Part shown: piece by piece, positions 3,038 through 34,525 of the stretch
Layout of the letters: each line of letters opens with the position of its first letter
How positions within the stretch are numbered: the stretch's first letter is position 1
Notes under the pieces: model-generated
What the model saw: only the letters and a program-made list of their open reading frames with translations
Databases searched by the model: none
What the model was told of the DNA's origin: nothing
DNA from: Ophelia neglecta
Lineage: Eukaryota
Direction: 5' to 3'
Assembly: GCA_965285935.1 (NCBI GenBank)
Contig: OZ260662.1
Span: forward strand, 30,938,001-31,002,000
Length of the DNA: 64,000 bases
Program-made: the position numbers and the translations under genes

Positions 3038-3161
3038 TTTCGACGGCGGGTATTACACTTAACTATAATCTCATCGCCCATCAATGTCGCCACCTACTCC
3101 AACAAACTTCTCTGTCGTAATTGTCAAGATAGTGACGTAATAGATAAAATCAGCGTAATAA

Positions 3162-6828: not shown

Positions 6829-6881
6829 GTTTCACGTTCATATTTCATATTTCTTTGAAATATGAAATATGAACCTGAAAC
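6829..6881. repeat. 25-bp inverted repeat (hairpin) with 3-nt loop
   Basis: GTTTCACGTTCATATTTCATATTTC-ttt-GAAATATGAAATATGAACCTGAAAC, one mismatch. Confidence 0.85.
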
Positions 6882-7170
6882 GTAAGCAACTGATACTTAT
6901 CTCACGATTAAAAAAAACTGAATAGAAATATTACACAAAAAGTTTTATCAGGATAGAGATTGGGTTGGGGATGTAGCACAAGGACCACATAGCACAATGG
7001 ATAGAGTCGCCGATATAGCTGGGCTAGGTGGTGGTACCGCAATGGGTGACAGATAAAGTGTTGAGGATAGTGATGTGCAATGAACATTGTAGTCAGTACA
7101 TGTAATGAGTGAGAAATTGCCAGTGACAGAACTAAGTTTGATCATCAACCGAAAACTACATGGCTGCTGA

Positions 7171-7364
7171 GTTTCACACCTAATAATGAACACTGGTTCA
7201 TGGTCACACAACATAAAAACATCTTCATATAATAATTGGATAACAATTAACACCTATTACGGTTCAGCAGGCAATGATGCAAAACATCAGTACCGGTGTG
7301 AGTAGTTTGATTTCACACCTTTGTGCCTGTAGTAATTTAATATTACCCATGTGCTTTCACACCT
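7171..7364 (+). promoter_or_regulatory. T-box site cluster upstream of array gene copy 1 (repeated with variants in every unit)
   Basis: TCACACCT at 7174, 7313 and 7357, TAACACCT at 7248, and GGTGTGA at 7295 (perfect AGGTGTGA in copies 2, 6, 7, 9). Interspersed TTTGAT motifs and a perfect TCF site ATCAAAG at 7599. CCAAT and TATA-like motifs lie between the cluster and the ATG. Confidence 0.55.
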
Positions 7365-7670
7365 TATCAGGCGTTGTGAGTGCCAAGACACATGAGTTGA
7401 GTGCTGTCCAATCACTGTAAGTGTTAAATACACTCCACTCAACTTATGCCTGATGGCTGGTGATACTAACACATATCTCGGTATATTAGGCTAGGAGTTA
7501 GAGAACTCCTTAGATCTGATCTTGAGCTAACCCACACTACAACCACACTACCACCATAAAGAGACAGAGAGAGAGAGAGAACCTGACTGCCTGAATTCAT
7601 CAAAGAGCTGTATATCTTTACATTTTTGCCTATCCCTGCAGAATTTCTAGATCATCATCATCCATTCACT

Positions 7671-8782
7671 ATGGACAAAGTTGTTCTTGGTCAGGAGACC
7701 TTTGCCCGCCAGAAAAAGAGAACCCCACAGGTGAACATTGTTGTATTATCAGACATAATTTTTACATAAATGTTCATAAGATTACTTAGCATATACTAAT
7801 TGTCATTTTATTCCAATATTTTCTCAATGAACGGGTAACCGAATAAACCTGTTAATATACTTTCTCATACAGAGTTAGTGGTGAGCTTCAAAGTTTGGCG
7901 ATACTCTCCTTAATTTTATTTCATTTTCATAATTTTTAATGATTACAATATTTTTTAAATTTATGATTAAATGTTGCATTTTAAAATCAAAACAAATATT
8001 CTCACACACCGTTTGTCTATTCTCAGGTTCTTTGGAGAAGGATTGGAACTTCTGTTTACCCTTGCCCTGCTGAGTGCCTGGAGAATTCCACTCATTCGGA
8101 CAACAGCATAGAGTTGTCTTCCGACTTCTACGACAGACTTCCGGACATCAGTCTAGAGATGAGCAGTGTTCACCGTGTTTGCCATAACATCACACGATGC
8201 TCGGATGACACCAGACTCTCGGACTATTCATCCCACATCAGGTTCAGTGGGAGTACCTACAGCAAGATACAGAGTCCCCAAACTTCCACCAGAACGGACC
8301 TCAGCCAGACCCCACCCAGTGCCTGTTGGTCGTCCATCCTGACATCTGGTGACTCCTGGGAGTACTGCCTACCCGAGGTGCCCCACAACAGCCCCGATGT
8401 CAGTCTAGAGTCCAGGATGACCCTGGTCCGCCCTGCTTGTCACACACGGTCATCTCTAGGCCCAAGGCCCCAGTGTGATGGACAAGAGTCAGAAGAACAC
8501 TCCCCGCCAAATGAGAGTTTCGACGGTGTGGACCCCCTAGACTCCGAGGAGGATCTTGGACTTTCGCTTCTGACTGCCTCATTGACCTCTACCCACACCC
8601 GGCTGCACACCACCGCTGACTCCGATGCCACCTTCTTCATGCATGCGCCTTTATCCCGGAAGGCAGTCACCAAGCAGGAAGCCCATAGTAAAAGGAAAAG
8701 GATTCTTACCAAGCTGAAGAAGTTTAAGCAGCACTTCAACAGTGTTGCTGGGGGCCAGATGCACACGTTAGCTGTCCTCTAG
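7671..8782 (+). CDS. Unknown-family array gene, copy 1 (exons 7671-7730, 8027-8782; 271 aa)
   Basis: MDKVVLGQETFARQKKRTPQ, then gtgaac...ttctcag, then VLWRRIGTSVYPCPAECLE in frame with ORF 8114-8782. Ends KRKRILTKLKKFKQHFNSVAGGQMHTLAVL. Confidence 0.8.
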
Positions 8783-9379
8783 GATGGAAAATAAGTGACA
8801 TGAATACCTGGAAAAACATGCCTGTGATAGAGACTGCTACAGCAAACATGCCCTTTAAACATTCCATGCAAACAGTGTTGGGGAAAGAGAACTTTAAAGA
8901 ATCTAGCATATGTTCTTTATTTATTTTTATTTTTTAATGTTACATTTGATATTTTAAATATTGGAGCCACGGAGGTGCCTATTATGGTTATATTTATGCA
9001 ATTGATAAGCCACCAATGCCTTTTAAGTCTACAAGACCTATTAGGAGCCTAACAAGTCAATGGATTGCTTCGTTTATTAATAAGTACTTTCCATTTATAT
9101 CATAATCATCCTGTTAGTCATTATGTAAATATGTAAATACGTTGAAAGACGTAAATAAATCATACTGTTATTAAACATGCTGAATTTCTTTTAAAGTCAA
9201 TGAAAAATTGGTTACAAAGTAAGTTTAAGTGCCGCGAGTTTCAATTTACTGAGAAGATATATTTCCTAATACGAGATTCAGTGGTTTGATATACGAAAAA
9301 TATAAAATCACACGATTTACCATAAGGCCACTCTGCACAACCTAAGTTGAAAAAGTGAGGTCAACAAGGTCTGCATTTT

Positions 9380-9381
<2 letters not shown>

Positions 9382-9457
<76 letters not shown>
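9382..9457. repeat. (TA)n microsatellite at the LINE 3' tail
   Basis: Directly visible, abutting the LINE 3' end. Confidence 0.9.
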
Positions 9458-13011: not shown

Positions 13012-13720
13012 TCACACCATTTACCATAAGGCCACTCTGCACAACCTCGTTGAAAATGTGAGGTCAACAAGGTCTGCATATTGGATATAAATCGGAACTT
13101 ATATTGGCGCCATGGAAGATCCAAGATACGATCTCACAAATATAGATTTATTCATTGAAATCACTACATATAATTAGTGAGAAATTGCCAGTGACAGAAC
13201 TTAGTTTGATCATCACCCAAAAGACTTCATGGCTGCTGAGCTTTACACCTTTTGATGAACACTGGTCAAAAATAAACACTTATTAGGGCACAGCAGGCAA
13301 TGATGCAAATCACCGTTACAGGTGTGAGTAGTTTGATTTCACACCTTTGTGCCTGTAGTTTCTTAATGTAACCCATATGCTTTCACACCTTATCAGGCGC
13401 TGTGAGTGCCAAGAAACAAGAGTTGAGTGGCGTCCAATCACTGTAAGTGTTAAATACAATCCACTCAGCTTATGTCTGATTGCTGGTGAGACTAACACAT
13501 ATCTCGGTATAATAGGCTTGGACTTCGAGAAATCCTTAGATCTGATTTTGAGCTAACACACACTACACCACACTACAACCAAATAGAGAGATACTGAGAG
13601 AGATACTGAGGGAGAGAGAGAGTAAGAGAGGACCTGCCTGCCTGACTTCATCAAAGAGCTGTATATCTTTACATTTTGCATTTCCCTGTAGTACTTCTAA
13701 ATCATCATCATCCATTCACT

Positions 13721-14816
13721 ATGGACAGAGTTGTAGTTGATCAGGAGGCCCGCCAGAACAAGAGAACCCTAAAGGTGAATATTGTTATATTATCAGACAT
13801 ACTTATTTCATTAATATTGATAAGATTACTTAGCATATACTAATTGGCATTTTTTTTATTCCAATATTTTCTCAATAAACAGAAACCGAATAATCCTTAT
13901 TAATATACCTTCTCATACAGAGTTATCAGTGATCGGCGAGCTTTAATATTTGGCAATAACGTTACTCTCCTTAATATTTTTTTTTTAATTTTTGATAATT
14001 TTTTTTCAATATTTTTTAAATTTATGATTATATGTTGTATTTCAAAATGTATACAAATATTCTCACACACCGTTTGTCTATTCTCAGGTTCTTTGGAGAA
14101 GGATTGGAACTTCTGTTTACCCTTGCCCTGCTGAGTGCCTGGAGACTTCCACTCATTTGGACCACAGCATAGAGTTGTCTTCCGACTTCTACGACAGACA
14201 CCCGGAGACCAGTCAGGAGATGAGCAGTGTTCACCGTGTTTGTCATAACAACACACGATGCTCGGATGACACCGGACTCTCGGACTATTCATCCCACAGC
14301 AGGTTCAGTGGGAGTACCTGCAGCAAGTTACAGAGTCCCCAAACTTCCACTAGAACGGACCTCAGCCAGACCCCACCCAGTGTCTGTTGGTCGTCCACCC
14401 GGACATCTAGTGACTCCAGGGAGTACTGCCTACCCGAGGTGCCCCACAACAGCCCTGATGTCAGCCTAGAGTACAGAGAGCGGTCATCTCTAGGCCCTAG
14501 GCCCCAGTGTGATGGACAAGAGTCAGAAGAACCCTCCCGGCTAACTGAGAGCTTCGACGCCATGGATCCCCTGGACTCCGAGGAGGATCCTGGCCTTTCC
14601 CTTCTCACTGCCTCATTGACCTCTTCTCACAACCGGCTGCACACCACCGCTGACTCCGATGCCACATTCTTCATGCATGCGCCTTTATCCCGGAAGGCAG
14701 TCACCAAGAAGGAAGCCCATACCAAGAGAAAAAAGATTCTTACCAAGCTGAAGAAGTTTAAGCAGCATCTCAACAGTGTTGCTGCCGACCAGATGCACAC
14801 GTTAGCTGTCCTCTAG
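13721..14816 (+). CDS. Array gene copy 2 (exons 13721-13774, 14088-14816; 260 aa)
   Basis: Same splice sites as copy 1, open frame, C-terminus MHTLAVL. Confidence 0.8.
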
Positions 14817-17060: not shown

Positions 17061-18391
17061 GCGTAACTCTGAAAAGTGATGGATATTGAACATTGAAGTT
17101 ACTACATGTAATGAGTGAGAAATTGCCAGTGACAGAACTTAGTTTGATCATCACCCAAAAGACTTCATGGCTGCTGAGTTTCACACCTTTTGATGAACAC
17201 TGGTCAACAATTTAACACCTATTACGGCTATGCAGGCAATGATGCAAAACACCGTTACTAGGGTGAGTAGTTTGATTTCACATCTTTGTACCTGTAGTTA
17301 CTTAATATGCCTATATGCTTTCACACCTCATCATGCGTTGTTAGAGCCAGGAAACAAGAGTTGAGTGGTGTCCAATAACTGTAAGTGCTAAATACAATCC
17401 ACTCAACTTATGTCTGATGACTGGTGAGACTAACACATACCTCGGTATAATAGGCTAGGAGTTGGAGAAATCCTTAGATCTGATTTTGAGCTTACCCACA
17501 CTACACCACAATACAACCAGAAAGAGAGATACTGAGAGAGATACTGAGAGAGAGAGTAAGAGAGGACCTGCCTGCCTGACTTCATCTAAGAGCTGTATAT
17601 CTCTACATTTTGCATTTCCTTGTAGTTCTTCTAAATCATCATCATCATCCATTCACTATGGACAGAGTTGTACTTGGTCAGGAGGCCTTTGACCGCCAGA
17701 ACAAGAGAACCCCAAAGGTGAATATTGTTATATTATCAGACATACTTATTACATAAATATTAATAAGATTACTTAGCATATACTAATTGCCATTTTTTAT
17801 TCCAATATTTTCTCAATAAACAGAAACCGAATAATCCTTATTCATATACCTTCTCATACAGAGTTATCAGTGAGTGGTGAGCTTCAATATTTGGCGATAA
17901 CGTTACTCTCCTTTATATCTTTTGTTAATTTTGGATAATTTCAATATTATTTAAATTTATGATTATATGTTGTATTTCAAAATGTAAACAAATATTCTCA
18001 CACACCGTTTGTCTATTCTCAGGTTCTTTGGAGAAGGATTGGAACTTCTGTTTACCCTTGCCCTGCTGAGTGCCTGGAGACTTCCACTCATTCGGATCAC
18101 AGCATAGAGTTGTCTTCCGACTTCTACGACAGACTTCCGGACATCAGTCTAGAGATGAGCAGTGTTCACCGTGTTTATCATAACAACACACGATGCTTAG
18201 ATGACACCGGACTCTCGGTCTCCTCATCCCACGGCAGCTTCAGTAGGACTACCTGCAGCAAGCTTCAGAGTCCTCAAACTTCCACTAAAACGGACCTCAG
18301 CCAGACCCCACCCAGTGTCTGTTGGTCGTCCATCCGGACATCCGGTGACTCCTGGGAGCACTGCCTACCCGAGGTGCCCCCCAACAGCCCT

Positions 18392-18634
18392 TGTTCCGGC
18401 GAAAGTTTAACACTAAACAAGAAATGTCACGACTAATGTTACCTCTATATTTCTAAGTTTATTTCCTGCTCATAATCATCCATGGCAAACAAAACAAGTA
18501 CCAAACTCAACCTGAAGGCCTTGACCTTCTTCCATTCAATAACAAGTTGCAGCACACCTGGTGGTCACTGACTGAACTTAAAGCTAAAAGTGTCCTACTA
18601 CTTAAACTAGGCAATTTAACCAGTCTGCACAACA
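18392..18634 (-). repeat. 3' LTR of the BEL/Pao element
   Basis: TGTTCCGGCG...GCACAACA, identical by eye to 24864-25106. Adjacent polypurine tract AGAAAGGGGAGGA on the minus strand at 18635-18647. Confidence 0.95.
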
Positions 18635-18888
18635 TCCTCCCCTTTCTGATATGAAATATCAACTAAATTTAACTAAAAGTTCATAATACTTATGCATGTC
18701 CGCATAGCTTCTAATGGAAATAAGATATTCCAAATCGAACTGTCTGTGTATCCAACTGAACTTTACGATATAAATTATATGTTTTACTGAATGATATCTT
18801 CGAAAAGGCGTCATATTGATTATCCTGTGAGCAGATTCTCGTAAATCTTTAAGATGAAATTATTGACTAAATTTAATGTATCTGCTTG

Positions 18889-21800
18889 TTACTCATCACG
18901 GCCTTGTTCCAATGGGCATAGCTTCGCTATGGGACGACGAAGAATAGTTTGTCCAACCTTGATATCAGCTGTTCGAACATGGCCGTCACGACCTGGGAAA
19001 GTTCTGATTACTCTACCCAGGGGCCATTTGCCTCTAGGGGTGTCCGGCATAAGGACTAGTACTACTTCCCCTACATGAATGTCATCACGCGTTTGGCTCC
19101 ATTTTTTACGTGTGTTCAGTCCAGGAAGCCATTCACGTAGCCATCTGTTCCAAAATTGTCGCGTTAGTTCCTGAATACGTCGCCATCGCTTCCGGGGACT
19201 GAAGTCAGTGCTGTCAACTGACTCGGGAGCAAATTCTCCTCCTATTTGCCCATGGAGGAAATGGTTGGGCGTCAATGGTACATAGTCATCACAGTTCGCA
19301 CTTTGGTAAGTGAGAGGCCGAGAATTGATTAAGCCTTCAGCACCTACGATGGCAGTCAACAGTTCCTCATCTGTTACATCAGCATCTCCAAGGATAGCTT
19401 TTATTGCCCGCTTAGCTGCTTTGATCATTATTTCGTGAGCACCATTAATGTGTGGTGCTCCAGGGGGGTTGAAATGCCACTGCACTCCGCGATTGGCTGT
19501 TGATTCCTGTATCTTATTTTGATCAAGTGCAGCGACAAGTTCACGTAACTCTCTGTCCGCCCCTATGAAGTTAGTTCCATTATCCGAGACCATGTCCCTC
19601 GGTAGGCCTCTACGAGAAACCATGCGGAAAAAGGAATTCAAAAACGAATCCGTGTCTAAGCGGTAGGCTAGTTCCAGATGCACTGCTCTGGTTTGCAAAC
19701 ATGTAAATAAACATAAATATCTCTTTTCACGGATTCTTCCTCGGCGTTGCCTTGTAATAAAAGGACCAGCGAAATCGACTGCAGTTTGAGTGAATGCCCG
19801 AAGTGACATACGCGTTCGAAGTTCATCAAGTGGTGCCATCACTTGGCTGGCAGGAGATGCTTTCCTCAACTTACATCTCATACACTGTCTCTCCCATCCT
19901 CTTATTGCCTCTCTAGCGGAGACAATCCAAAAGCACCTGGAGAGGTGTGAAAGCACCTGATTTGTCCCACCATGCTGACACTGTTCATGTGCCTCCTTAA
20001 CGATCAATGTGGTGACGTGGTGTCGACGTGGCAAAATAACTGGGTATCTTGTTTCCCACGACATGCATTCGGCGAAGCACAATCGACCATCACATCGTAG
20101 AATGCCCTCCTCATCCAACATTGGTTTCAGAGGTCTGAGCTGTGAGTTGCTGGGTAACTGCTGACCGGCTCGCAATTTACGAATGTCTTCTCCAAATTGC
20201 TCCTGCTGAGCTATTTTGATGAAGTGTCTTTGAGAATCAGCAAGCTCTGCTGGCTGAATTGGCCCTGTTCTACGGAGTGGCTCTGGCAAGCGACAATTGT
20301 CTACAAATCTCATCACTCTGGCCATCAACCTGGTCAATTTGACCCAGTTAGAGAAACGTGAGGGGTCTAGTTTGTCACACATGGCTGGTTCTGTAGATGT
20401 TACAAGAGCAACATCTTTGTCTGGTGCTCCTGTACTTACAGTACAATCGAGCTCTCTGTACTGTTTTCTGAGTTCTTTGTCCTGGTTTGATTTGGTCAAT
20501 ATAGGAGTTTCTGGCCAGCCTGCAGTATCTGTATGCAGAAATTTAGGACCGTTCCACCATTTATCCTCGTCTATAAGGCTAGATAAGGAGAGTCCACGAG
20601 TAAGCATATCTGCCGGATTCTCATCTGTCGGCACGTACCTCCACTGAGAGGGTTCAGTAGAAGCTTGAATGTCACCAACACGATTAGCTACGAATGGCTT
20701 AAATTTGCGACTGTTTCCCCTGATCCAATAAAGGACGTCCATGCTATCTGACCAAAATTGACAGTCAGATTTCGAAATGTTCAGAGCTTTTGCCACAGGT
20801 TCCAACATTTTGAGTCCTACGATAGCTGCCATAAGTTCAAGTCTAGGTATGCTCACGGCATTCAGAGGTGCAACACGTGACTTTGCACTGACTAACCTAC
20901 AAGTGACTGTCCCATCCGTATATTGGTGTCTGGTATATGCAGCTCCTCCATAAGCCATCTCTGATGCATCTACGAAAAAATGGAGAGCTACATTGTCCAG
21001 TTCTTTCCTGATTTTGAGACAGCGAGGAATAGTGATATGTGCCAAGTCCTCCAATTCGCTGAACCATTTTTGTGCTCTTTTCGCCAGTTCTACATCAGGA
21101 GTTTCATCCCAGGCCAAACCAGCAGCCCAAATATCCTGCAGTAGTATCCTTGCCTGGACAGTGAATGGGACTAGGAAACCCAATGGATCGAATAAAGTGG
21201 CTATCTTATTCAGGAAGCTTCGCTTTGTAATTTCATATTCACTGTCCGGGGGATTAACAGAGAAATGGAATGTGTCGCTCTCTGGAATCCAAAGCACACC
21301 CAATGTTTTTATGCATGGCACTGGATCTTTGTCCAAATTTACAGCACTAATGCAATCTGCAGATGGAATGTTCTGTAGTACCGTTGGAGAATTTGATATC
21401 CACTTCCGAGCATGCATACCTGCGGATGCCCACAAGCCTGATAACTGCTTGTAGAGTTCAATCGCCGTATCCTCATCAGCTACAGAGTCGAGGCTATCAT
21501 CCATGTAGGTTCCCTGCAAGACAGTCTCTGCTGCTAGTGGATATTCTGCCTGATGCTGTCTGGCATGAAACTGAGATATGAATTGTGCCATAAACGGAGA
21601 TGAACCCATGCCGAATACTACTCTCGAAAATTCGTAGACATCTGGTGGCTTACTTTGATCTAAGTCCCGCCATAAAAATCTATGAAATGGCCGGTCTTCG
21701 GATTTCAAACGTATTTGTAGGTACATTTCAGCCACGTCGCTTGTTAGAGCAATGGATTCTCGACGGAATCGTAGGAGAACAGCTACTAGATCATTCTGCA

Positions 21801-24726
21801 GTTTCGGTCCTTCATTGACAACATCATTGACTGATATACCATCACATTTGGCGGCCGCATCGAATACTATGCGCACCTTTGTCGTACTCTTGTCAGGCCG
21901 TAATACAGGAAAATGTGGCAGATACCAAAGTTCATTGGGTTCCTGTTCCTGTGGCGCCACCTGTCGAATGTACCCCTTGTCTAGGTAACTTTGCAATACA
22001 TTTCGGTATGCCTGACTTAGTTCTGGATGTCTGAGCAATCTTTTTTCTGTATTGCTCAGTCTTTGCAATGCCACTTCGTAATTGTTTGGCAATGCAGGCC
22101 TGTCCTTCTTCCATGGTATACCAACACTGTAATGTCCATCATTGTACTGTAAAGTTTCTGTAACAATTTCATTGGCATATTTTTCATCTGGCTTTATCAA
22201 TTTCCCAATGGTTTGTGGCTCTTCAATGTCCCAAAATTTACGAACAAGCTGATCGAGTTCCATAGTATCATTCTGAAAGAATGTAAAGTTAGTGTGAGGT
22301 TGTCCAGAACTGCCCTGCATATTGCCAATGCAAGTCCATCCTAATGGCGTCAGTCTGGCAATTGGTTCTCCAGATTCACCTTTAATTTCACGCAGAGAAC
22401 AATGCAGATCACTCTGGTCTATCCCAATTAGAATGTCTACTATTGGCCGGTGTCCTGCCTGCGGAAATTTGATGCCAGCTAGATGTTTCCATCTGTCTTG
22501 CTGCTGTTTCCAATTTACAACCTGCATGTTGCCTGTGACACGCTTTGTGGAATAAGCAGTGATCGGCTTAACAACTTTGCCATCTATGCTCTGGATCTGA
22601 AAGTCAACTGCTTCACTTTCTATTCTGGCGGTGTTGTTGTTCAGAACATTTACGGTTAAGTCCTGAGGTCTTCCCACAAGGCCTAGCTGAGCCACGACAT
22701 CTTCATTTATAAATGTTCTGGTGCTAGCATCGTCAAGTAACGCATTCACTACCACATTCCTATTGCCACTGACTAGGCGTACTGCCACTGTTCGTAAAGC
22801 AATAAACTCTGAACCACTCGAACTGAGAGTAGTAGTATGAGTATGATCTACTGAATCTGCTTGCTTTTCCCTTGGAGGTTCCGCACCATGTGTTTGAGGA
22901 GTTGGTGAATTCTCGGTGACTGGCTCGAATGTTTTCCCTGTTATTGGGGTTTCGGGTGCTTTTTCCGTTCTCTTGGCATGCAAAAGTCTATTGTGATTGG
23001 ACTTGCAGCCATCAATCCCACATGTGCGACTTCTTTGGCATTGATCACCACGGTGTGAGTTGGACAAACAACGGAAACAAAGCTTGAGCAATTTTGCTTT
23101 TTCCCAACGCTGATCGTTGTTCAAGTTTTTGAATTCTTCACAAGCCCAAACTGCATGTTTTGCATGGCATATGACACAGTTTCTGTTGTATGTTTTATTT
23201 TCTGATTGTACTTGCTGTGTCATAAATGTTCTTGCTGATTGGCCTTTTTTCGGACCGTCTTTTAAAATGCCCTTGACGGTTTCTACGGCAGTGCTGAGAA
23301 ATTCTGATTCTTGGTTCACAAATGCTCTTAAAGTTTCGACAGTTTCTGAGAAATTGTGCTCGAAAATCCAGCGATTGTATTTAGACAGAAGGTTTTCATT
23401 CAATTTTCTCTGCAATGAAACATACAGAGCTCCCCCTCCGAGCTCCCCTTCTTGACCAACTTCATACATATTGACTACCAATACGTCAAGGAGTTCTGCG
23501 AATTTTTCTAAGTCCTGGGCACTATTTTCCCTAATTTGTTTGAAATTGTCCAATTCCTCTAACCTAAGCACCATCTGTCGCCTTTTACCACCATACTTTC
23601 TCTCAAGGCGGTCTGTGGCAATATTGTAGGCAGCTGCCGAATGTCCTAAACTTTCAATAACTTTCAAAGCTTCTCCCTCCAGTGAGTCCCGTAAACGTAA
23701 AAGTTTGTATTCTGGTGGTACACTGGTTCTGTCCACACATGCAATGAATGCAGCTTTCCATGCCTCATAATTCTTCTTTTCTCCTTTGAATTTTGGGATA
23801 GGCACTCGTGTGAGTAGTCTCATTGAGTCAAATTGGTGTGACTGCGGCGAAAGCGAAGGGTTACAGCTTGGCTGTGCGTAAAACAAAGATCCATGTTGTT
23901 GTGGTGACATAACGGATGGTTGTGGCGGAAATCCACTCTCCTGTGGTGGAGTAATCTGGGCTGGATATGCCGGTGTAACTGGCTGCTGAGGGGTAAACGG
24001 CTGTCTATCTGGTATCGAAGATATTTGAGCGGATTCATATGGGTAGGGCGTAGATGCGACAGCATGAAGGAATGACGGTGCAGGTCTTGTGGCAGCATGG
24101 TAATAGGTGGACGGATTTGACGTAACGTACCTCTGAGGGGCCGGAGATCGGGACGAATATGACGAATATACCCCTGGGGTACCGAAAATTCCACCATTCC
24201 CTGCCATAGTACCTGGCTTGTCATCCTGATTATCAGCATCAGCATCTGCCAGTTTGACATTAGTATTATCATGATTTGTAGTTTCTGGTCTTGTGTCATC
24301 TTCAGATTTAATTTGTGTGGATGACTTCACCTTGAGACTAGAAATTGTCTCCTCTAAATCTTTAGACAGTTTATTGATTTTGGCTTCTGTTTTTGTAATT
24401 TCATTTTCAAGGCTGGGGGCTTTAGGACCTCTCAAAATGTGTCTCTGAACATCATTTTCAGCTTTTGAAAAGGCTTGTTCAATGGCTGATATCTCCACTT
24501 CCAGAGCGGCCATTTTGTCAACTTCACTATACACAGAATACATTTGACCTAGTTCCTCAAAAGCCAGTATCACATCCTGTAAGGCAGCTGACAGCTGACC
24601 AAAAATTGCCCTGATTTGTGATTTTGTTGACAAGCCATCATCTAATGAAGTGTATAATGTGTTCTTTACCTTCTCAAAGACAGCCTTTGCTTTCAGTTTC
24701 CTTGTTCTGAGTCCTAAAGAAGCCAT
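18889..24726 (-). CDS. BEL/Pao Gag-Pol polyprotein (about 1945 aa from the first ATG)
   Basis: Gag segment PKFKGEKKNYEAWK, three Cys/His knuckles (CVICHAKHAVWAC, CFRCLSNSHRGDQC, CGIDGCKSNHNRLLH), protease ALLDDAS, RT YLPHFPV...YMDD, RNase H FVDASEMAYG, and integrase HHCC plus VDFAGP/SDNGTNF. Order is PR-RT-RH-IN, with no stops. Confidence 0.97.
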   Translation of the reverse strand: MASLGLRTRKLKAKAVFEKVKNTLYTSLDDGLSTKSQIRAIFGQLSAALQDVILAFEELGQMYSVYSEVDKMAALEVEISAIEQAFSKAENDVQRHILRGPKAPSLENEITKTEAKINKLSKDLEETISSLKVKSSTQIKSEDDTRPETTNHDNTNVKLADADADNQDDKPGTMAGNGGIFGTPGVYSSYSSRSPAPQRYVTSNPSTYYHAATRPAPSFLHAVASTPYPYESAQISSIPDRQPFTPQQPVTPAYPAQITPPQESGFPPQPSVMSPQQHGSLFYAQPSCNPSLSPQSHQFDSMRLLTRVPIPKFKGEKKNYEAWKAAFIACVDRTSVPPEYKLLRLRDSLEGEALKVIESLGHSAAAYNIATDRLERKYGGKRRQMVLRLEELDNFKQIRENSAQDLEKFAELLDVLVVNMYEVGQEGELGGGALYVSLQRKLNENLLSKYNRWIFEHNFSETVETLRAFVNQESEFLSTAVETVKGILKDGPKKGQSARTFMTQQVQSENKTYNRNCVICHAKHAVWACEEFKNLNNDQRWEKAKLLKLCFRCLSNSHRGDQCQRSRTCGIDGCKSNHNRLLHAKRTEKAPETPITGKTFEPVTENSPTPQTHGAEPPREKQADSVDHTHTTTLSSSGSEFIALRTVAVRLVSGNRNVVVNALLDDASTRTFINEDVVAQLGLVGRPQDLTVNVLNNNTARIESEAVDFQIQSIDGKVVKPITAYSTKRVTGNMQVVNWKQQQDRWKHLAGIKFPQAGHRPIVDILIGIDQSDLHCSLREIKGESGEPIARLTPLGWTCIGNMQGSSGQPHTNFTFFQNDTMELDQLVRKFWDIEEPQTIGKLIKPDEKYANEIVTETLQYNDGHYSVGIPWKKDRPALPNNYEVALQRLSNTEKRLLRHPELSQAYRNVLQSYLDKGYIRQVAPQEQEPNELWYLPHFPVLRPDKSTTKVRIVFDAAAKCDGISVNDVVNEGPKLQNDLVAVLLRFRRESIALTSDVAEMYLQIRLKSEDRPFHRFLWRDLDQSKPPDVYEFSRVVFGMGSSPFMAQFISQFHARQHQAEYPLAAETVLQGTYMDDSLDSVADEDTAIELYKQLSGLWASAGMHARKWISNSPTVLQNIPSADCISAVNLDKDPVPCIKTLGVLWIPESDTFHFSVNPPDSEYEITKRSFLNKIATLFDPLGFLVPFTVQARILLQDIWAAGLAWDETPDVELAKRAQKWFSELEDLAHITIPRCLKIRKELDNVALHFFVDASEMAYGGAAYTRHQYTDGTVTCRLVSAKSRVAPLNAVSIPRLELMAAIVGLKMLEPVAKALNISKSDCQFWSDSMDVLYWIRGNSRKFKPFVANRVGDIQASTEPSQWRYVPTDENPADMLTRGLSLSSLIDEDKWWNGPKFLHTDTAGWPETPILTKSNQDKELRKQYRELDCTVSTGAPDKDVALVTSTEPAMCDKLDPSRFSNWVKLTRLMARVMRFVDNCRLPEPLRRTGPIQPAELADSQRHFIKIAQQEQFGEDIRKLRAGQQLPSNSQLRPLKPMLDEEGILRCDGRLCFAECMSWETRYPVILPRRHHVTTLIVKEAHEQCQHGGTNQVLSHLSRCFWIVSAREAIRGWERQCMRCKLRKASPASQVMAPLDELRTRMSLRAFTQTAVDFAGPFITRQRRGRIREKRYLCLFTCLQTRAVHLELAYRLDTDSFLNSFFRMVSRRGLPRDMVSDNGTNFIGADRELRELVAALDQNKIQESTANRGVQWHFNPPGAPHINGAHEIMIKAAKRAIKAILGDADVTDEELLTAIVGAEGLINSRPLTYQSANCDDYVPLTPNHFLHGQIGGEFAPESVDSTDFSPRKRWRRIQELTRQFWNRWLREWLPGLNTRKKWSQTRDDIHVGEVVLVLMPDTPRGKWPLGRVIRTFPGRDGHVRTADIKVGQTILRRPIAKLCPLEQGRDE

Positions 24727-24848
24727 TTTCCTAATGGAAATTTCCACAGTTAAAGCAGCCTCAACACAATGTAGACAGAAAATACTTGATCACAAAGTTC
24801 CTCCAAATTCCACCACAAAATCCATGAAACACAACAATAACCACGTTG

Positions 24849-24859
24849 CTCTGCTACCA
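24849..24859 (-). other. Primer binding site TGGTAGCAGAG (initiator tRNA-Met)
   Basis: Complementary to the 3' end CTCTGCTACCA of animal tRNA-iMet, 4 nt inside the 5' LTR. Confidence 0.8.
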
Positions 24860-24863
24860 GCAA

Positions 24864-25106
24864 TGTTCCGGCGAAAGTTTAACACTAAACAAGAAATGTC
24901 ACGACTAATGTTACCTCTATATTTCTAAGTTTATTTCCTGCTCATAATCATCCATGGCAAACAAAACAAGTACCAAACTCAACCTGAAGGCCTTGACCTT
25001 CTTCCATTCAATAACAAGTTGCAGCACACCTGGTGGTCACTGACTGAACTTAAAGCTAAAAGTGTCCTACTACTTAAACTAGGCAATTTAACCAGTCTGC
25101 ACAACA
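24864..25106 (-). repeat. 5' LTR of the BEL/Pao element
   Basis: 243 bp, identical by eye to 18392-18634, adjacent to the PBS. Confidence 0.95.
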
Positions 25107-28100
25107 GCCCTGATGTCAGCCTAGAGTTCAGAGAGCGGTCATCTCTAGGCCCTAGGCCCCAGTGTGATGGACAAGAGTCAGAAGAACACTCCCGGGCAAG
25201 TGAGAGCTTCGACGCCATGGACCCCCTGGACTCCGAGGAGGATCCTGACCTTTCCCTTCTCACTGCCTCATGGACCTCTTCTCACACCCGGCTGCACACC
25301 ACCGCTGACTCCGATGCCACCTTCTTTATGCATGCGCCTTTATTCCGGAAGGCAGTCACCAAGAAAGAAGCCCATAACAAGAGAAAAAAGATTCTTTCCA
25401 AGCTGAAGAAGTTTAAGCAGCATCTCAACAGTGTTGCTGGGGGCAAGATGCACACGTTAGCTGTCCTCTAGGATGGAAAATGATCCTGTAAAAACATGCC
25501 TGTGGTAGAGACTGCTACAGCAAACATGCCCTGAAAACATTCCATGCAAACAGTGTTAGGGAAAGAGAACTTTAAAGAATCTAGCATTTATTTTTAAATG
25601 ATTGCTTTTTTAATGTTACCCTTGATATTTTAAATATTTGAGCCACCGAGGTGCCTGTTTTGGTTATATTTATGCATTTGATAAGCCACCAATGTCTTTT
25701 AAGTCAACAAGACCTATTAGGAGCCTAACAAATCAATTGATTGCTCCATTTATTAATAAGTGAGTTTCATCTATATCATAGTCATCATGTTAGTTATTAT
25801 GTAAATATGTAAATATGTTGAAAATTGTAAATAAATCATAGGCCTCCTGTTATTAAACATGCTGTTTTTCATTAATTATCAATTTAAAATTGATTATAAA
25901 GTAAATTTCAGTGCTGAGAGCTACAACTTGCGGAGAATATATATTTCTTAATACGAAATTCAGTGGTTTAATATACGATAAATATCAAATCACACAATTT
26001 ACCATAAGGCCACTGTGCAGAACTTGTTGAACAATGAGGGCAACAAGGTCTGCATATTGGATGTAAAACGGGACTTATATTGGCGCCAGGGAAAATCCAA
26101 AATACGATCTCGCAAATTTAGATTTATCCTCGGATTTTCAAGTTTTTATCCAAACTGCGCACATAGAAGGGTTCAGTCTTTAGACAGGCTTTACGCCATA
26201 GACGACAGCATGTATAGGTTCACAGATTTTTAACAGGAAAATCGATTGTACATCGGTTTAAAATAGTCGAAAATAGTTTATTTCGATTTTTCCTTGTTTC
26301 TCGGAATATTTCTACAAAAAAGTTGTCCTGCAGAAAATAGTTTACCTCGTTAGATTACATGTTTTTGTGGAAGTTAATTGTATTTTTCTATTTTCTTTTG
26401 ACCTTTTAGCCATTACTGACTCCCATTGTCCGCCCTCCCGTTCACTGGGCACGATGATCAACTCTGTTGGCGGTTCATCCCTTCGTGGGCTGGTGGGCCA
26501 TTCATTGTCAATGGGATTGTGTAGGTCTACATGACGGGCGTCTTGGTGACCATCATACAGTGGTCTTTGAACATGGTGGCTTTTGAATTTTGTCCCGTCC
26601 GTTATTGTCGCGGTCGACCGAAATACGCCATCTGTTAGAATGGTAGTAGCTGCTTGGGCTTTTCCACTATTTGTCCATGTGCAGAATGTTGATATTTTTT
26701 TAATAGTTCCATTTGTATGTTGGTAGCTATCGCCGATCAATTTGACTAATGTTTTGTTTTAAGCCTCGAGGGTTTTTATTTTCTGCTGCATCTTCCTTGA
26801 CTCATTTTCAAAGTTCATTCTCAAAGCTTCAAGTCTGTCATTTGTTTGTTGTTATTCTGTAACGGTGGTTCCGATAAATTCGATAAGGCGGATGAACAGG
26901 TCTAAAGCTGCTTTACCTGTTAGCCCTTTGATATCTTTGTTGCTCATTAGATTAGTTTGTTCATCTTTTCACTGAGTGAAGAATGATCTTGGGAACTAAT
27001 TTTCATTTCTCTCACTTACATGAATAGTTCGACCACATATTCAACCAGTACATCTATTTTCCTGCGCTCTTTTGGAATTTTTATTTAATCTTTTGTATAT
27101 TGAGGGCTTTACAGATTTTTTCGAATTGTTCAATGGCTTCCTTTGCCAGAGTGTTTCATGTATCCCGCATAACCTCTTCGTCAAAGTATTGTTTTATTTC
27201 CGCGATTACTCCCTTTCAGAGGAATTCTCTGGTTTTTGCTTTATTCTACCTTCTATGCTGGGTATTTCCACGGAGAATACAGTTTGTCCGCTCTCTTGAG
27301 AGTCCAGGATATTTCGGGATATTTCTGTGATTATTTCGATGCCACAATAGTACGGTAGATGCATTTTGTCGTCCGCTTTTGGGTGCTAGACTCATCAGTT
27401 GTACTGCTTCTGGATCCTCGGCGGCCCTGGGCGCTTTCACACCTTTTTGGTTGACTGGTCCAGCCGCGGTTTTACAGTAATCAACCCAGTATAAATAACT
27501 TTTCAGTGTGCGATAAAATGGTATTAGAATATTTTTCCGGTAGAAACTTCAGATAAACCTGTGTGCGATCATCCTTCAAGGATGGCAAGAGGTCTCCGTG
27601 TTCCGTGTACCTTCTGTCGGGTTCCGTGTGGGTGGACCTGCTGCATCTCAGGGATTTAACAGTAGATTTTCTCACAGTGCCGCTGTGGATACACGTATCA
27701 CCAAGTCAACGCGTAACTCTGAAAAGTGATGGATATTGAACATTGAAGTCACTACATGTAATGAGTGAGAAATTGCCAGTGTCAGAACTTAATTTGATCA
27801 TCACCCAAAAGACTTCATGGCTGCTGAGTTTCACACCTTTTGATGAACACTGGTCAACAATTTTAACACCTATTACGGCTATGCAGGCAATGATGAAAAA
27901 CACCGTTACTAGTGTGAGTAGTTTGATTTCACATCTTTGAGCCTATAGGTACTTAATATGCCTATATGCTTTCACACCTCATCATGCGTTGTTAGAGCCA
28001 GGAAACAAGAGTTGAGTGGTGTCCAATAACTGTAAGTGCTAAATACAATCCACTCAACTTATGTCTGATGACTGGTGAGACTAACACATACCTCGGTATA

Positions 28101-28310
28101 ATAGGCTAGGAGTTGGAGAAATCCTTAGATCTGATATTGAGCTAACCCACACTACACCACAATATAACCAAAGAGAGAGATACTGAGAGAGATACTGAGA
28201 GAGAGAGAGTAAGAGAGGACCTGCCTGCCTGACTTCATCTAAGAGCTGTATATCTCTACATTTTGCATTTCCTTGAAGTTCTTCTAAATCATCATCATCA
28301 TCCATTCACT

Positions 28311-29403
28311 ATGGACAGAGTTGTACTTGGTCAGGAGGCCTTTGACTGCCAGAACAAGAGAACCCCAAAGGTGAATATTTTTATATTATCAGACATACTT
28401 ATTACATAAATATTAATAAGATTACTTAGCATATACTAATTGCCATTTTTTTTATTCCAATATTTTCTCAATAAACAGAAACCGAATAATCCTTATTCAT
28501 ATACCTTCTCATACAGAGTTATCAGTGAGTGGTGAGCTTCAATATTTGGCGATAACGTTACTCTCCTTTATTTCTTTTTTTAATTTTTGATAATTTCAAT
28601 ATTTTTTAAATTTATGATTATATGTTGTATTTCAAAATGTAAACAAATATTCTCACACACCGTTTGTCTATTCTCAGGTTCTTTGGAGAAGGATTGGAAC
28701 TTCTGTTTACCCTTGCCCTACTGAGTGCTTGGAGACTTCCACTCATTCGGATCACAGCATAGAGTTGTCTTCCGACTTCTACGACAGACTTCCGGACATC
28801 AGTCTAGAGATGAGCAGTGTTCACCGTGTTTGCCATAACAACACACGATGCTCAGATGACACCGGACTCTCGGTCTCCTCATCCCACGGCAGCTTCAGTA
28901 GGACTACCTGCAGCAAGCTTCAGAGTCCTCAAACTTCCACTAAAACGGACCTCAGCCAGACCCCACCCAGTGTCTGTTGGTCGTCCATCCGGACATCTGG
29001 TGACTTCTGGGAGCACTGCATACCCGAGGTGCGCCACAACAGCCCTGATGTCAGCCTAGAGTTCAGAGAGCGGTCATCTCTAGGCCCTAGGCCCCAGTGT
29101 GATGGACAAGAGTCAGAAGAACACTCCCGGGCAAGTGAGAGCTTCGACGCCATGGACCCCCTGGATTCCGAGGATCCTGGCCTTTCCCTTCTCACTGCCT
29201 CGTGGACCTCTTCTCACACCCGGCTACACACCACCGCTGACTCCGATGCCACCTTCTTCATGCATGCGCCTTTATTCCGGAAGGCAGTCACCCAGAAAGA
29301 AGCCCATAACAAGAGAAAAAAGATTCTTTCCAAGCTGAAGAAGTTTAAGCAGCATCTCAACAGTGTTGCTGGGGGCAAGATGCACACGTTAGCTGTCCTC
29401 TAG
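28311..29403 (+). CDS. Array gene copy 4 (exons 28311-28370, 28678-29403; 261 aa)
   Basis: Splice sites conserved, open frame, 3-bp deletion (DSEDP). Confidence 0.8.
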
Positions 29404-31542
29404 GATGGAAAATGATTACCTGTAAAAACATGCCTGTGGTAGAGACTGCTACAGCTAACATGCCCTGAAAACATTCCATGCAAACAGTGTCAGGGAAAGA
29501 GAACTTTAAAGAATCTAGCATTTATTTTTAAATGATTGCTTTTTTAATGTTATCCTTGATATTTTGAATATTTGAGCCACCGAGGTGCCTGTTATGATTA
29601 TATTTATGCATTTGATAAGCCACCAATGTCTTTTAAGTCTACAAGACCTATTAGGAGCCTAACAAATCAATTGATTGCTCCATTTATTAATAAGTGAGTT
29701 TCATCTATATCATAGTCATCATGTTAGTTATTATGTAAATATGTAAATATGTTGAAAATTGTAAATAAATCATAGGCCTCCTGTTATTAAACATGCTGTT
29801 TTTCATTAATTATCAATTTAAAATTGGTTATAAAGTAAATTTCAGTGCTGAGAGCTACAACTTGCGGAGAATATATATTTCTTAATACGAAATTCAGTGG
29901 TTTAATATACGATAAATATCAAATCACACAATTTACCATAAGGCCACTGTGCAGAACTTGTTGAACAATGAGGGCAACAAGGTCTGCATATTGGATGTAA
30001 AACGGGACTTATATTGGCGCCAGGGAAAATCAAAAATACGATCTCACAAATTTAGATTTATCCTCGGATTTTCGAGTTTTTATCCAAACTGCGCACATAG
30101 AAGGGTTCAGTCTTTAGACAGGCTTTACGCCATAGACGACAGCATGTATAGGTTCACAGATTTTTAACAGGAAAATCGATTGTCCATCGGTTTAAAATAG
30201 TCGAAAATAGTTTATTTCGATTTTTCCTTGTTTCTCGGAATATTTCAACAAAAAAGTTGTTCTGCAGAAAATAGTTGACCGTGTTAGATTTCATGTTTTT
30301 GTGGAACTTAATTGTCTTTTCTATTTTCTTTTGACCTTTTAGCCATTACTGACTCCCATTGTCCGCCCTCCCGTTCACTGGGCACGATGATTAACTCTGT
30401 TGGCGGTTCATCCCTTCGTGGGCTGGTGGGCCATTCAGTGTCAATGGGTATGGGTAGGTCTACAAGATGACGGGTGTCTTGGGGACCATCATACAGTGGT
30501 CTTTTGATATGGTGGCTTTTGAATTTTGTCCCGTCCGTTATTGTCGCGGTCGACCGAAATACGCCGTCTGTTAGTATGGTAGTAGCTGCATTTTGTCGTC
30601 CGCTTTTGGGTGCTAGACTCATCAGTTGTACTGCTTCTGGATGCTCGGCGGGCCTGGGCGCTTTCACACCTTTTTGGTTGACTGGTCCAGCCGCGGTTTT
30701 ACAGTAATCAACCCAGTTTAAATAACTTTTCAGTGTGCGATAAAATGGTATTAGAATATTTTTCCGGTAGAAACTTCAGATAAACCTGTGTGCGATCATC
30801 CTTCAAGGATGCCAAGAGGTCTCCGTGTTCCGTGTACCTTCTGTCGGGTTCCGTGTGGGTGGACCTGCTGCATCTCAGGGATTTAACAGTAGATTTTCTC
30901 ACAGTGCCGCTGTGGATACACGTATCACCAAGTCAACGCGTAACTCTGAAAAGTGATGGATATTGAACATTGAAGTCACTACATGTAATGAGTGAGAAAT
31001 TGCCAGTGACAGAACTTAGTTTGATCATCACCCAAAAGACTTCATGGCTGCTGAGTTTCACACCTTTTGATGAACACTGGTCAACAATTTTAACACCTAT
31101 TACGGCTATGCAGGCAATGATGCAAAACACCGTTACTAGTGTGAGTAGTTTGATTTCACATCTTTGAGCCTATAGTTACTTAATATGCCTATATGCTTTC
31201 ACACCTCATCATGCGTTGTTAGAGCCAGGAAACAAGAGTTGAGTGGTGTCCAATAACTGTAAGTGCTAAATACAATCCACTCAACTTATGTCTGATGACT
31301 GGTGAGACTAACACATACCTCGGTATAATAGGCTAGGAGTTGGAGAAATCCTTAGATCTGATTTTGAGCTAACCCACACTACACCACAATACAACCAAAG
31401 AGAGAGATACTGAGAGAGATACTGAGAGAGATACTGAGAGAGAAAGAGTAAGAGAGGACCTGCCTGCCTGACTTCATCTTCATATCTCTACATTTTGCAT
31501 TTCCTTGTAGTTCTTCTAAATCATCATCATCATCCATTCACT

Positions 31543-32616
31543 ATGGACAGAGTTGTACTTGATCAGGAGGCCTTTGACCGCCAGAACAAGAGAACCCCAA
31601 AGGTGAATATTTTTATATTATCAGACATACTTATTGCATAAATATTAATAAGATTACTTAGCATATACTAATTGCCATTTTTTTATTCCAATATATTCTC
31701 AATAAACAGAAACCGAATAATCCTTATTCATATACCTTCTCATACAGAGTTATCAGTGGTTGGTGAGCTTCAATATTTGGCGATAACGTTACTGTCCTTA
31801 ATATTTTTTTTTAATTTTTGATAATTTCAATATTTTTTAAATTTATGATTATATGTTGTATTTCAAAATGTAAACAAATATTCTCACACACCGTTTGTCT
31901 ATTCTCAGGTTCTTTGGAAAAGGATTGGAACTTCTGTTTACCCTTGCCCTACTGAGTGCTTGGAGACTTCCACTCATTCGGATCACAGCATAGAGTTGTA
32001 TTCCGACTTCTACGACAGACTTCCGGACATCAGTCTAGAGATGAGCAGTGTTCACCGTGTTTGTCATAACAACACACGATGCTCAGATGACACCGGACTC
32101 TCGGTCTCCTCATCCCACGGCAGCTTCAGTAGGACTACCTGCAGCAAGCTTCAGAGTCCTCAAACTTCCACTAAAACGGACCTCAGCCAGACCCCACCCA
32201 GTGTCTGTTGGTCGTCAACCCGGACATCTAGTGACTCCAGGGAGTACTGCCTACCCGAGGTGCCCCACAACAGCCCTGATGTCAGCCTAGAGTACAGAGA
32301 GCGGTCATCTCTAGGCCCTAGGCCCCAGTGTGATGGACAAGAGTCAGAAGAACCCTGCCGGCTAACTGAGAGCTTCGACGCCATGGATCCCCTGGACTCC
32401 GAGGAGGATCCTGGCCTTTCCCTTCTCACTGCCTCATGGACCTCTTCTCACACCCGGCTGCACACCACCGCTGACTCCGATGTCACATTCTTCATGCATG
32501 CGCCTTTATCCCGGAAGGCAGTCACCAAGAAGGAAGCCCATAACAAGAGAAAAAAGATTCTTACCAAGCTGAAGAAGTTTTGTGGAAGTTTATTGTATTT
32601 TTCTATTTTTTTTTGA
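31543..32616 (+). CDS. Array gene copy 5 with altered C-terminus (exons 31543-31602, 31909-32616; 255 aa), possibly a pseudogene
   Basis: A deletion at about 32580 replaces KQHLNSVAAGQMHTLAVL with CGSLLYFSIFF and removes the 3' UTR. Confidence 0.65.
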
Positions 32617-34525
32617 CCTTTTAGCCATTACTGTCTCCCATTGTCCGCCCTCCCGTTCACTGGGCGCGATGATCAACTCTGTTGGCGGTTAATCCCTTCG
32701 AGGGCTGGTGGGCCATTCATTGTCAATGGGATTGTGTAGGTCTACATGACGGGCGTCTTGGTGACCATCATACAGTGGTCTTTGGACATGGTGGCTTTTG
32801 AATTTTGTCCCGTCCGTTATTGTCGCGGTCGACCGAAATACGCCATCTGTTAGTATGGTAGTAGCTGCTTGGGCTTTTCAACTGTTTGTTCATGTGCAGA
32901 ATATTGATATTTTTTTAATAGTTCCATTTGTATGTTGGTAGCTATCGCCGATCAATTTGAGTAATGTTTTGTTTTCATCCTCGAGGGTTTTATTTTCTGC
33001 TGCATCTTCCTTGACTGATTTTCAAATTTCATTCTCAAAGCTTCAAGTCTGTCATTTGTTTGTTATTATTCTGTAACGGTGGATCCGATAAATTCGATAA
33101 GGCGGATGGACAGGCCTAAAGCTGCTTTACCTGTTAGCCCTTTGATATCTTTGTTGCTCATTAGATTAGTTTGTTCATCTTTTCACTGAGTGAAGAATAA
33201 TCTTGGGAACTAATTTTTATTTCTGACACTTACATGAATAGTTCGACCACATATTCAACCAGTACATCTATTTTCCTGCTCTCTTTTGGAATTTTTATTT
33301 AATCTTTTGTATATTGAGGGCTTTACAGATTTTTTCGAATTGTTCAATGGCTTCCTTTGCCAGAGTGTTTCATGTATCCCGCATAACCTCTTCGTCAAAG
33401 TCTTGTTTTATTTCCGCGATTACACCCATTTAGAGGAATTCTCTAGTTTTTTGCTTTATTCTAGCTTCTATGCCGGGTATTTCCACGGAAAATATAGTTC
33501 GTCTGCTCCTTATGAGAGTCCCAGATATTTCGGGATATTTCTGTGATCATTTCGATGCCAGAATAGTACGGTAGATGCATTTTGTCGTCCGCTTTTGGGT
33601 GCTAGACTCCTCAGTTGTACTGCTTCTGGATCCTCGGCGGGCCTGGGCGCTTTCACACCTTTTTGGTTGACAGGTCCAGCCGCGGTTTTACAGCAATCAA
33701 CCTAGTTTAAATATCTTTTCAGTGTGCGATAAAGTGGTATTAGAATATTTTTTCCGGTAGAAACTTCAGATAAACCTATGTGCGATCATCCTTCAAGGAT
33801 GGCAAGAGGTCTCCGTGTTCCGTGTACCTTCTGTCGGGTTCCGTGTGGGTGGACCTGCTGCATCTCAGGGATTTAACAGTAGATTTTCTCACAGAGCCGC
33901 TGTGGATACACGTATCACCAAGTCAACGCGTAACTCTGAAAAGTGATGTGTATTGAACATTGAAGTCACTACATGTAATGAGTGAGAAATTGCCAGTGAC
34001 AGAACTTAGTTTGATCATCACCCAAAAGACTTCATGGCTGCTGAGTTTCACACCTTTTGATGAACACTGGTCAAAAATAAACACTTATTAGGGCACAGCA
34101 GGCAATGATGCAAAACACCGTTACAGGTGTGAGTAGTTTGATTTCACACCTTTGTGCCTGTAGTTTCTTAATGTAACCCATATGCTTTCACACCTTATCA
34201 GGCGCTGTGAGTGCCAAGAAACAAGAGTTGAGTGGCGTCCAATCACTGTAAGTGTTAAATACAATCCACTCAGCTTATGTCTGATTGCTGGTGAGACTAA
34301 CACATAAATCGGTATAATAGGCTTGGACTTCGAGAAATCCTTAGATCTGATTTTGAGCTAACACACATTACACCACACTACAACCAAATAGAGAGATACT
34401 GAGAGAGATACTGAGGGAGAGAGAGAGTAAGAGAGGACCTGCCTGCCTGACTTCATCAAAGAGCTGTATATCTTTACATTATGCATTTCCCTGTAGTACT
34501 TCTAAATCATCATCATCCATTCACT

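Follow-up and report, generated by a model that had tools for sequence, protein, structure and literature searches.

T-box target promoters described in other animals

The closest described counterparts of the locus analysed here are T-box target promoters of Xenopus and Ciona. In Xenopus, most Xbra binding lies within 400 bp of a start site, the Xbra v1 oligonucleotide is a high-affinity one (Kd about 14 nM), and Xbra, Eomes and VegT share sites (PMC3791401). In Ciona, the presence of several Brachyury sites goes with early onset (PMC3812116). For TBX1, no in vitro binding to an isolated half-site was seen, indicating that not every T-box factor reads such sites, and the same source provides the consensus AGGTG(T/C)(G/T)A, which is the form relied on in this work (PMC4010391). 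As for Wnt input, the consensus of the TCF/LEF response element is CCTTTGAT(G/C) (PMC8651982). Expression of tbx2/3 at cleavage and gastrula stages has been reported in two annelids (PMC12550047), and no direct T-box target promoter in annelids was found in the literature searched, a limited library. Homotypic clusters of T-box sites are an established arrangement. What appears to be new in the locus described below is the target, an unnamed gene family that would share T-box input across promoters too different to be aligned.

A nine-copy tandem array in Ophelia neglecta

The window, that is, the whole 64-kb stretch analysed (G000:C2:30938001-31002000, in a genome of 762 Mb), contains nine tandem copies of a unit, which by self-comparison start near 7.1, 13.2, 17.1, 27.8, 31.0, 34.0, 37.9, 41.9 and 47.4 kb. 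Matches to the erythrocruorin linker pass the Pfam cut-off, which fits an annelid, as does the occurrence of a member of the gene family in Ridgeia piscesae. In each unit, an upstream block of about 370 bp is followed by a TATA-like box, a leader and a coding exon of 54-60 bp, which a GT..AG intron of about 300 bp separates from a second exon (Table 1). Around the predicted start, the imperfect TATA-like box, a conserved ATG, the GT..AG intron and an AATAAA were observed, all of them sequence features; the transcription start would be placed by the TATA-like box, and, from where it lies, the upstream block can be taken as a likely proximal promoter. The brevity of the gene, its single small intron and its TATA-like box would be in keeping with early, burst-like expression.

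Frames are open in seven of the nine copies (260-271 residues in the six that were translated; the frame of copy 8 was checked separately), and dN/dS is 0.40-0.61 in eight of nine copy pairs, the outlier being the pair formed by copies 2 and 7 (3.7, from 12 versus 1 changes). On the grounds of the open frames, of dN/dS and of the family of 130 described below, the array gene is judged to be under constraint. The element that breaks exon 2 of copy 3 is of the BEL/Pao type, with an open frame of 1966 residues, a 5-bp target duplication and two identical 243-bp repeats, and its insertion is judged to be recent. Copy 8 joins a type-B promoter (the types are described below) to an exon 1 with the deletion of type A and to a 3' end like that of copy 1, a mosaic structure that points to unequal crossover or conversion. 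The 3-kb segments found after copies 1 and 8 (9444-12445 and 44018-46985), which contain decayed open frames on the minus strand, are 96% identical, suggesting that the whole block of copy, segment and copy was duplicated. In three sequencing runs, coverage of intron and promoter was DNA-like, and these runs derive from one sample, possibly the source of the assembly itself, so they are not independent.

Other features of the window include an open frame with a weak tetraspanin-family match under the cut-off, next to the array (2477-3052, minus strand); an A+T-rich inverted repeat upstream of copy 1 (6828-6882), whose hairpin matches are weak and far under Rfam gathering scores, the Rfam search having returned nothing close to them; and a 42-bp unit repeated thirteen times (60203-60759), with open frames on both strands and no Pfam match.

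Table 1. Features of the array, in coordinates of the window; those of the promoter and gene refer to copy 1
Feature	Position	Strand	Remarks
Conserved upstream block, likely proximal promoter	7108..7481	+	Common to nine copies and the dispersed C7 paralog (alignment)
Half-site 1, TTTCACACCT	7172..7181	+	308 bp before TATA-like box; exact in 8/9 copies, TTACACCT in copy 2
Half-site 2, TAACACCT	7248..7255	+	Present in copies 1, 3, 4, 5, 8; lost in 2, 6, 7, 9
Half-site 3, reverse	7294..7301	-	CGGTGTGA in copy 1 (one mismatch); AGGTGTGA, exact, in 2, 6, 7, 9; degraded in 3, 4, 5, 8
TTTGAT hexamer between sites 3 and 4	7306..7311	+	Context AGTTTGATT; without the C of the TCF core; absent from C7; not counted as TCF site
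Half-site 4	7310..7322 (core 7313-7320)	+	12/13 letters as in Xbra v1 oligonucleotide; one mismatch in copies 3, 4, 5, 8
Half-site 5	7354..7366 (core 7357-7364)	+	125 bp before TATA-like box; exact in 9/9 copies; 12/13 letters as in Xbra v1
TATA-like box, imperfect	7482..7489	+	TATATTAG in copy 1, TATAATAG in seven copies, TTTAATAG in copy 8; aligns with TATATAAG in C7
ATCAAAG, sole good TCF-type match (8/9 letters)	7599..7605	-	Inferred 5' leader; copies 1, 2, 6, 7, 9 only; absent from C7 and C9
Coding exon 1, predicted	7671..7730	+	20 codons; first residues recur in C7 and C9 paralogs
Intron, predicted	7731..8026	+	Phase-0 GT..AG
Coding exon 2	8027..8782	+	251 residues, mostly disordered; family C-terminal motif (SD..F, basic helix, TLAVL end)
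AATAAA, candidate polyadenylation signal	9154..9159	+	Like distance in most copies
Copy 2	13176..14816	+	Promoter type A, open frame
Copy 3	17114..25471	+	Promoter type B; exon 2 broken by LTR element at 18392-25106
Copy 4	27764..29403	+	Promoter type B, open frame
Copy 5	30991..32616	+	Promoter type B; 3' end lost, without TLAVL end
Copy 6	33981..35648	+	Promoter type A, open frame
Copy 7	37944..39588	+	Promoter type A, open frame
Copy 8	41886..43512	+	Promoter type B, open frame; probably recombinant
Copy 9	47445..49111	+	Promoter type A, open frame

A cluster of T-box half-sites before the TATA-like box

A preliminary description of this DNA had reported a dense cluster of T-box motifs upstream of the first gene, amplified with every copy, and both observations were borne out. 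In the 350 bp that precede the TATA-like box of copy 1 there are three exact TCACACCT (at 7174, 7313 and 7357, each in the TTTCACACCT context) and one TAACACCT, besides the reverse site. The background was a sample of 200 kb drawn from 20 evenly distributed positions in the genome, which is not a set of real promoters. It contains 4 instances of exact TCACACCT (1 per 50 kb) and none of the 10-mer TTTCACACCT, and the published consensus (PMC4010391) occurs 24 times (1 per 8.3 kb), compared with 4 in the 350 bp of copy 1. Three exact sites or four consensus sites were found in none of the 560 background tiles (350 bp each), and dinucleotide shuffling of the copy-1 promoter, repeated 1000 times, never reached three exact sites or the observed consensus count. 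The forms scored were the exact motif, AGGTG(T/C)(G/T)A, TNACACCT, one mismatch, TVWCACCH, TTNACAC, TCACAC and TNACAC. Each of the nine copies has 3-4 matches to the published consensus, and the cluster was amplified passively, since the duplicated unit carries promoter and gene together. Abutting half-sites, as in the Brachyury palindrome or the TBX1 tandem-repeat element, were not found in copy 1: the nearest pair, sites 3 and 4, is inverted with 11 bp between, and the others are at least 44 bp apart. As the nine copies count as a single observation in evolutionary terms and the motif was spotted post hoc, the enrichment in the array alone proves little on function.

Recurrence of the sites in distant members of the family

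Four further paralogs of the array gene were found in the genome, on C7, C9, C1 and C5. The upstream DNA of the C7 paralog can be aligned with that of the array, and its T-box columns are 83% identical (29/35, versus 201/304 elsewhere; p = 0.03, and 0.05 or 0.03 when copy 6 or copy 4 is used), compared with 66% for the rest of the block and 71% for the intron, so that the non-motif part of the promoter is no better kept than the intron. The TTTGAT columns are identical at 6/12 positions. The two proximal sites of C7 read TTACACCT, outside the strict consensus, and an internal duplication inflates two C7 sites as well as the TCACAC count of C5. Two other words of the block, kept in the C7 paralog and not found in L041 or L042 (two homologous loci introduced below), are GTGAGAA at its 5' edge (window 7108-7116), which we take to be CSL/Su(H)-like, and CACTCAA near the TATA-like box (window 7370-7442), presumably NK2-like; both may be regarded as candidate co-inputs.

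A stronger ground than the enrichment came from relatives in which the upstream DNA aligns neither with the array nor between relatives, pairwise scores being within the shuffle range. These were five: the paralogs on C9, C5 and C1, and the homologous loci L041 and L042, from one metagenome record set (a first metagenome scan for relatives had found none). The T-box motif was fixed beforehand from the published report (PMC4010391). With TATA anchors that for C5, C1, L041 and L042 were picked by eye while the sequence was visible (that of C1 being weak), and over a range of 500 bp set after the sites had been seen, all five relatives carry at least one published-consensus site before the TATA-like box. 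Their counts were 2, 1, 1, 1 and 3, that is, 8 sites in 2176 bp against 0.26 expected from the background and 0.36 from shuffling, a number reached in 0/1000 shuffles; here L041 and L042 were scored against the Ophelia genome background and their own shuffles. At least one such site was found in 7 of 177 TATA-anchored background stretches, and the 500 bp downstream of the TATA-like boxes had none in 7/7 cases. Within 350 bp, four of the five relatives retain sites (5 versus 0.19 expected; C1 has 0), and widening to 1000 bp adds none. Taken singly, several relatives are weak, the count being matched in 65/500 shuffles for C5, 33/500 for C1 and 20/500 for L041. A same-strand site lies 125, 124, 127, 115 and 112 bp before the TATA-like box in copy 1, C7, C9, L041 and L042, respectively; this band of 112-127 bp, also set after the sites were seen, is occupied in three of the five unalignable relatives and empty in C5 and C1.

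An unbiased k-mer count over copy 1, C9 and C5 placed TCACAC first (15 versus 0.75 expected). The same count gave CACTCA, an NK2-like word, 8 times versus 0.41, and for the CACTCA/NK2-like words the pooled shuffles gave 49/1000 and 306/1000, so it is a lead only, as is TGACA, which is high in C7 and C9 only. The word TTAGCA, found by eye in L041, L042 and C1, occurs six times in L041 1-204, L042 1-472 and L005 4476-4975 (2/1000 shuffles) and is absent from the array; it is likewise a lead only, and such words resemble Xbra motif v2 (PMC3791401).

The enrichment in the array and, above all, the recurrence in five unalignable promoters suggest that a T-box factor likely switches the gene family on directly. 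The motif might also be functional and have a different reader, for instance a zinc-finger factor or a core-promoter factor that recognises a CACAC/CACC core, or it might mark a promoter class. This alternative would accommodate the parallel enrichment of the related words TCACA and CACTCA, the fixed distance from site to TATA and the presence of CAGGTG, an E-box that we take to be of the Snail/Zeb type, in the type-A reverse site. Core-promoter factors, too, typically sit at a constant distance from TATA. The reading is nevertheless unlikely: the sites stand on both strands, spread over 450 bp, and their variation (TC, TA or TT at position 2, TATCACCT, a 5' T run and a fixed CACC) follows the TVWCACCH and AGGTG(T/C)(G/T)A forms given in the published sources.

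The question of a TCF/beta-catenin input

The preliminary description had also proposed that the T-box sites are interleaved with TCF motifs, that ATCAAAG lies near the ATG, and that the array is a direct target of both T-box factors and beta-catenin. The ATCAAAG is indeed there, 117 bp downstream of the TATA-like box. The interleaving was not upheld: within 7171-7605, copy 1 has a single TTTGAT upstream of the TATA-like box (at 7306), with another just outside, at 7137, both of them without the C of CTTTG. The contexts of the upstream hexamers are AGTTTGATC and AGTTTGATT, plus CTTTTGATG in copies 2-9. When TTTGAT, CTTTGAT, CTTTGWW and CCTTTGATS were scored, CTTTGAT was found 0 times in the 360 bp upstream in nine of nine copies, and CTTTGWW in one of nine, copy 1 having 0.

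A joint endomesoderm module that needs both the T-box and the beta-catenin/TCF input would draw on the 8/9-letter match in the leader of five copies, on the hexamers of the array (two TTTGAT in copy 1, a number reached by 34/500 shuffles, and three in copies 2-9, versus 0.4 expected, two of them adjoining T-box sites) and on two CTTTGWW in the C1 paralog (43/500 shuffles). Against it, TTTGAT is absent from the upstream regions of C7, C9, C5, C1 and L041, with one in L042; pooled over the relatives, TTTGAT is found once versus 2.5 expected and CTTTGWW 4 times versus 2.1 by shuffle (146/1000). Since CTTTGAT occurs once per 4.9 kb of background, one in about 560 bp is unremarkable. Co-input from TCF was rejected as a candidate, given that the four motif forms are not enriched beyond the array's own hexamers and that the leader site is missing in four of nine copies, in C7 and in C9. 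As judged from these motifs, TCF input is no part of the conserved design, and a module requiring both inputs is quite improbable. Of the proposed double target, then, the T-box half found support, through enrichment and recurrence in the unalignable relatives, and the TCF half did not, its motifs being at background level upstream of copy 1 and in the relatives.

Test of a possible repeat origin of the cluster

The possibility raised together with the preliminary description, that the motifs come from a decayed tandem repeat or a transposable element, was tested on the sequence. The promoter block has 10 matches in the genome, namely the nine copies and the C7 paralog, in a search that passes over very common words, and its contig depth is about that of the coding exon, far under that of the high-copy repeat at 6987-7073. 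The Tandem Repeats Finder (TRF) called no tandem array at 7108-7481, and in the self-similarity of the block the T-box motif instances are alike over 10-14 bp only. A motif array derived from a transposon or a tandem repeat was consequently rejected, there being no dispersed high-copy matches beyond the gene family and no internal repeat unit. Repeats do occur nearby. The very high-copy short repeat at 6987-7073, directly upstream of the copy 1 block, has tRNA-like loose ends and is probably a SINE fragment. The spacers before copies 3-8 (16450-17090 and like places) hold a dispersed repeat with 70-81% matches on C1, C2, C9 and C12, and an extra TTTCACACCT, about 660 bp before the TATA-like box in copies 3-8, sits in it as a possibly repeat-donated site. 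That chance or repeat-derived words were simply carried along by tandem duplication, as this extra site, the single observation that nine copies represent and the choice of the motif after it was seen might suggest, is largely refuted by the confinement of the block to the gene family, the lack of an internal unit and the recurrence of a motif fixed beforehand in 5/5 unalignable relatives, and is a very improbable reading.

Two promoter types within the array

The promoters of the array fall into type A (copies 2, 6, 7 and 9) and type B (copies 3, 4, 5 and 8), which are about 98-99% alike within a type and 89-92% between types, the promoter of copy 1 being 86-89% identical to both. The types represent paralogous variants located on the same contig; in DNA runs from one sample, which may be that of the assembly, contigs of A, B and copy 1 were all seen. 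The same split had been noticed earlier from the letters, and was confirmed at the reverse site and at ATCAAAG; the earlier account had missed that type B keeps the TAACACCT that type A lost. Sites have turned over in both, A having lost site 2 and B having weakened sites 3 and 4, with strict counts of 4 in A (3 in copy 2) versus 3 in B. Of 345 columns, 26 distinguish the types, and 5 of these are among the 40 motif columns (Fisher p = 0.20). Divergence targeted to the motifs was therefore discarded, as the differences are not enriched there, and the copy-specific output suggested in the preliminary description found no support in these numbers. The two types are most likely the product of paralogous drift with site turnover. 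A different output of the types is possible, because site number affects onset in Ciona (PMC3812116).

The encoded protein and its family

The array is predicted to encode an intracellular protein that is mostly disordered. In the structure model, which is of low confidence (mean pLDDT 57.8), two helices stand out from an otherwise disordered chain, a short one at 202-205 and a basic one at 219-240. Pfam gave no match over the cut-off in 2 + 25 proteins, the best PDB match had an E of 2.5, the Atlas yielded no usable hit for the array protein, and a word-based homolog search returned none for the single protein and 2 and 6 for alignments. A profile built from five paralogs collected 130 representatives at E up to 0.001. 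These share an SD...F motif near the end (127/130), a TLAVL-like end (106/130) and an RP.C.G-like middle motif (74/130). A tree made by a quick method is mostly unresolved (75 C-terminal residues; 112 rows, consisting of the 106 hits of 130 with a standard end and 6 sequences from the Ophelia genome). Of 30 clusters looked up, 28 had no name, and the only organism-named member in them is KAK2171184.1 of Ridgeia piscesae (cluster of P0067, E 4e-7), which belongs to the same C-terminal-motif family and, compared as a protein alone, is an uncharacterised hypothetical protein. The family motifs were not found in four supplementary files of PMC7441323, nor together with 'annelid' in the full-text literature, and no description of the family was found there.

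How the promoter might work, and which factor might read it

The cluster of four to five half-sites is probably a proximal promoter through which a T-box factor would directly activate a short, two-exon gene. In such a mechanism, several T-box monomers would bind the half-sites and activate from the nearby TATA-like box, one site would be held about 112-127 bp from it, and the sites together would drive strong, early transcription. The array would multiply the whole unit and hence the dose, and the protein may act through its conserved C-terminal motif on some partner, as the conservation of that motif suggests.

The genome has eight T-box loci, including a Brachyury-like one on C7 and Tbx2/3-like and Tbx21/Eomes-like ones on C12. 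At G000:C5:82.50-82.77 Mb there are three near-identical, clustered T-box genes (L031, L035 and L036), which by their translated exons represent a recent triplication. That the activator would be either Brachyury or an Eomes/Tbr1-class factor is favoured with a confidence only slightly above even, since all T-box proteins read near-identical sites. As Xbra, Eomes and VegT act on shared sites (PMC3791401), sequence cannot name the factor here, and Tbx2/3 could equally bind the sites of the array.

A broader scenario may be drawn from these elements, and as a whole it is doubtful. An old family of disordered proteins, annelid or perhaps more widely spiralian, would form a T-box battery, whose sites, at a near-fixed distance from TATA, were kept as the promoters diverged past alignment. 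Brachyury or Eomes would trigger the battery in the first wave of zygotic or gastrula expression, and the C-terminal motif would make the protein a dose-sensitive feedback regulator with a Ripply-like role. The nine-copy array would then have raised and re-tuned the dose, with its two promoter types differing in timing. Ripply has its role in chordates, and the comparison in terms of feedback is an analogy, the array family having no homology to Ripply.

Should the preferred reading of direct T-box activation be correct, T-box input would be the first functional clue for a 130-member family without annotation. The 370-bp promoter, with near-optimal sites, may serve as a ready reporter of T-box activity for spiral-cleaving embryos. 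Natural variants present in the array (4 versus 3 strict sites, with different ones lost) would allow tests of whether site number sets timing, as it is reported to do in Ciona (PMC3812116).

Comparison with the known systems

Compared with the TCF/LEF element (PMC8651982), the array presents one 8/9 match in the leader of five of nine copies and none upstream; the match is not kept in paralogs and is not enriched. The likeness to the Xenopus targets of Xbra, Eomes and VegT (PMC3791401) lies in two array sites that share 12 of 13 letters with v1. For the array gene, no homology to ripply, mesp or tbx6 was found (no Pfam match), and its sites are known from sequence. With respect to the notochord Brachyury CRMs of Ciona (PMC3812116), the array sites are predicted ones, nearer to the optimal consensus, and the target belongs to an unnamed family and has been amplified in tandem. 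Both systems nonetheless gather, over a short distance, several half-sites that are non-palindromic and have a TNNCAC core, and in both of them single sites turn over between lineages.
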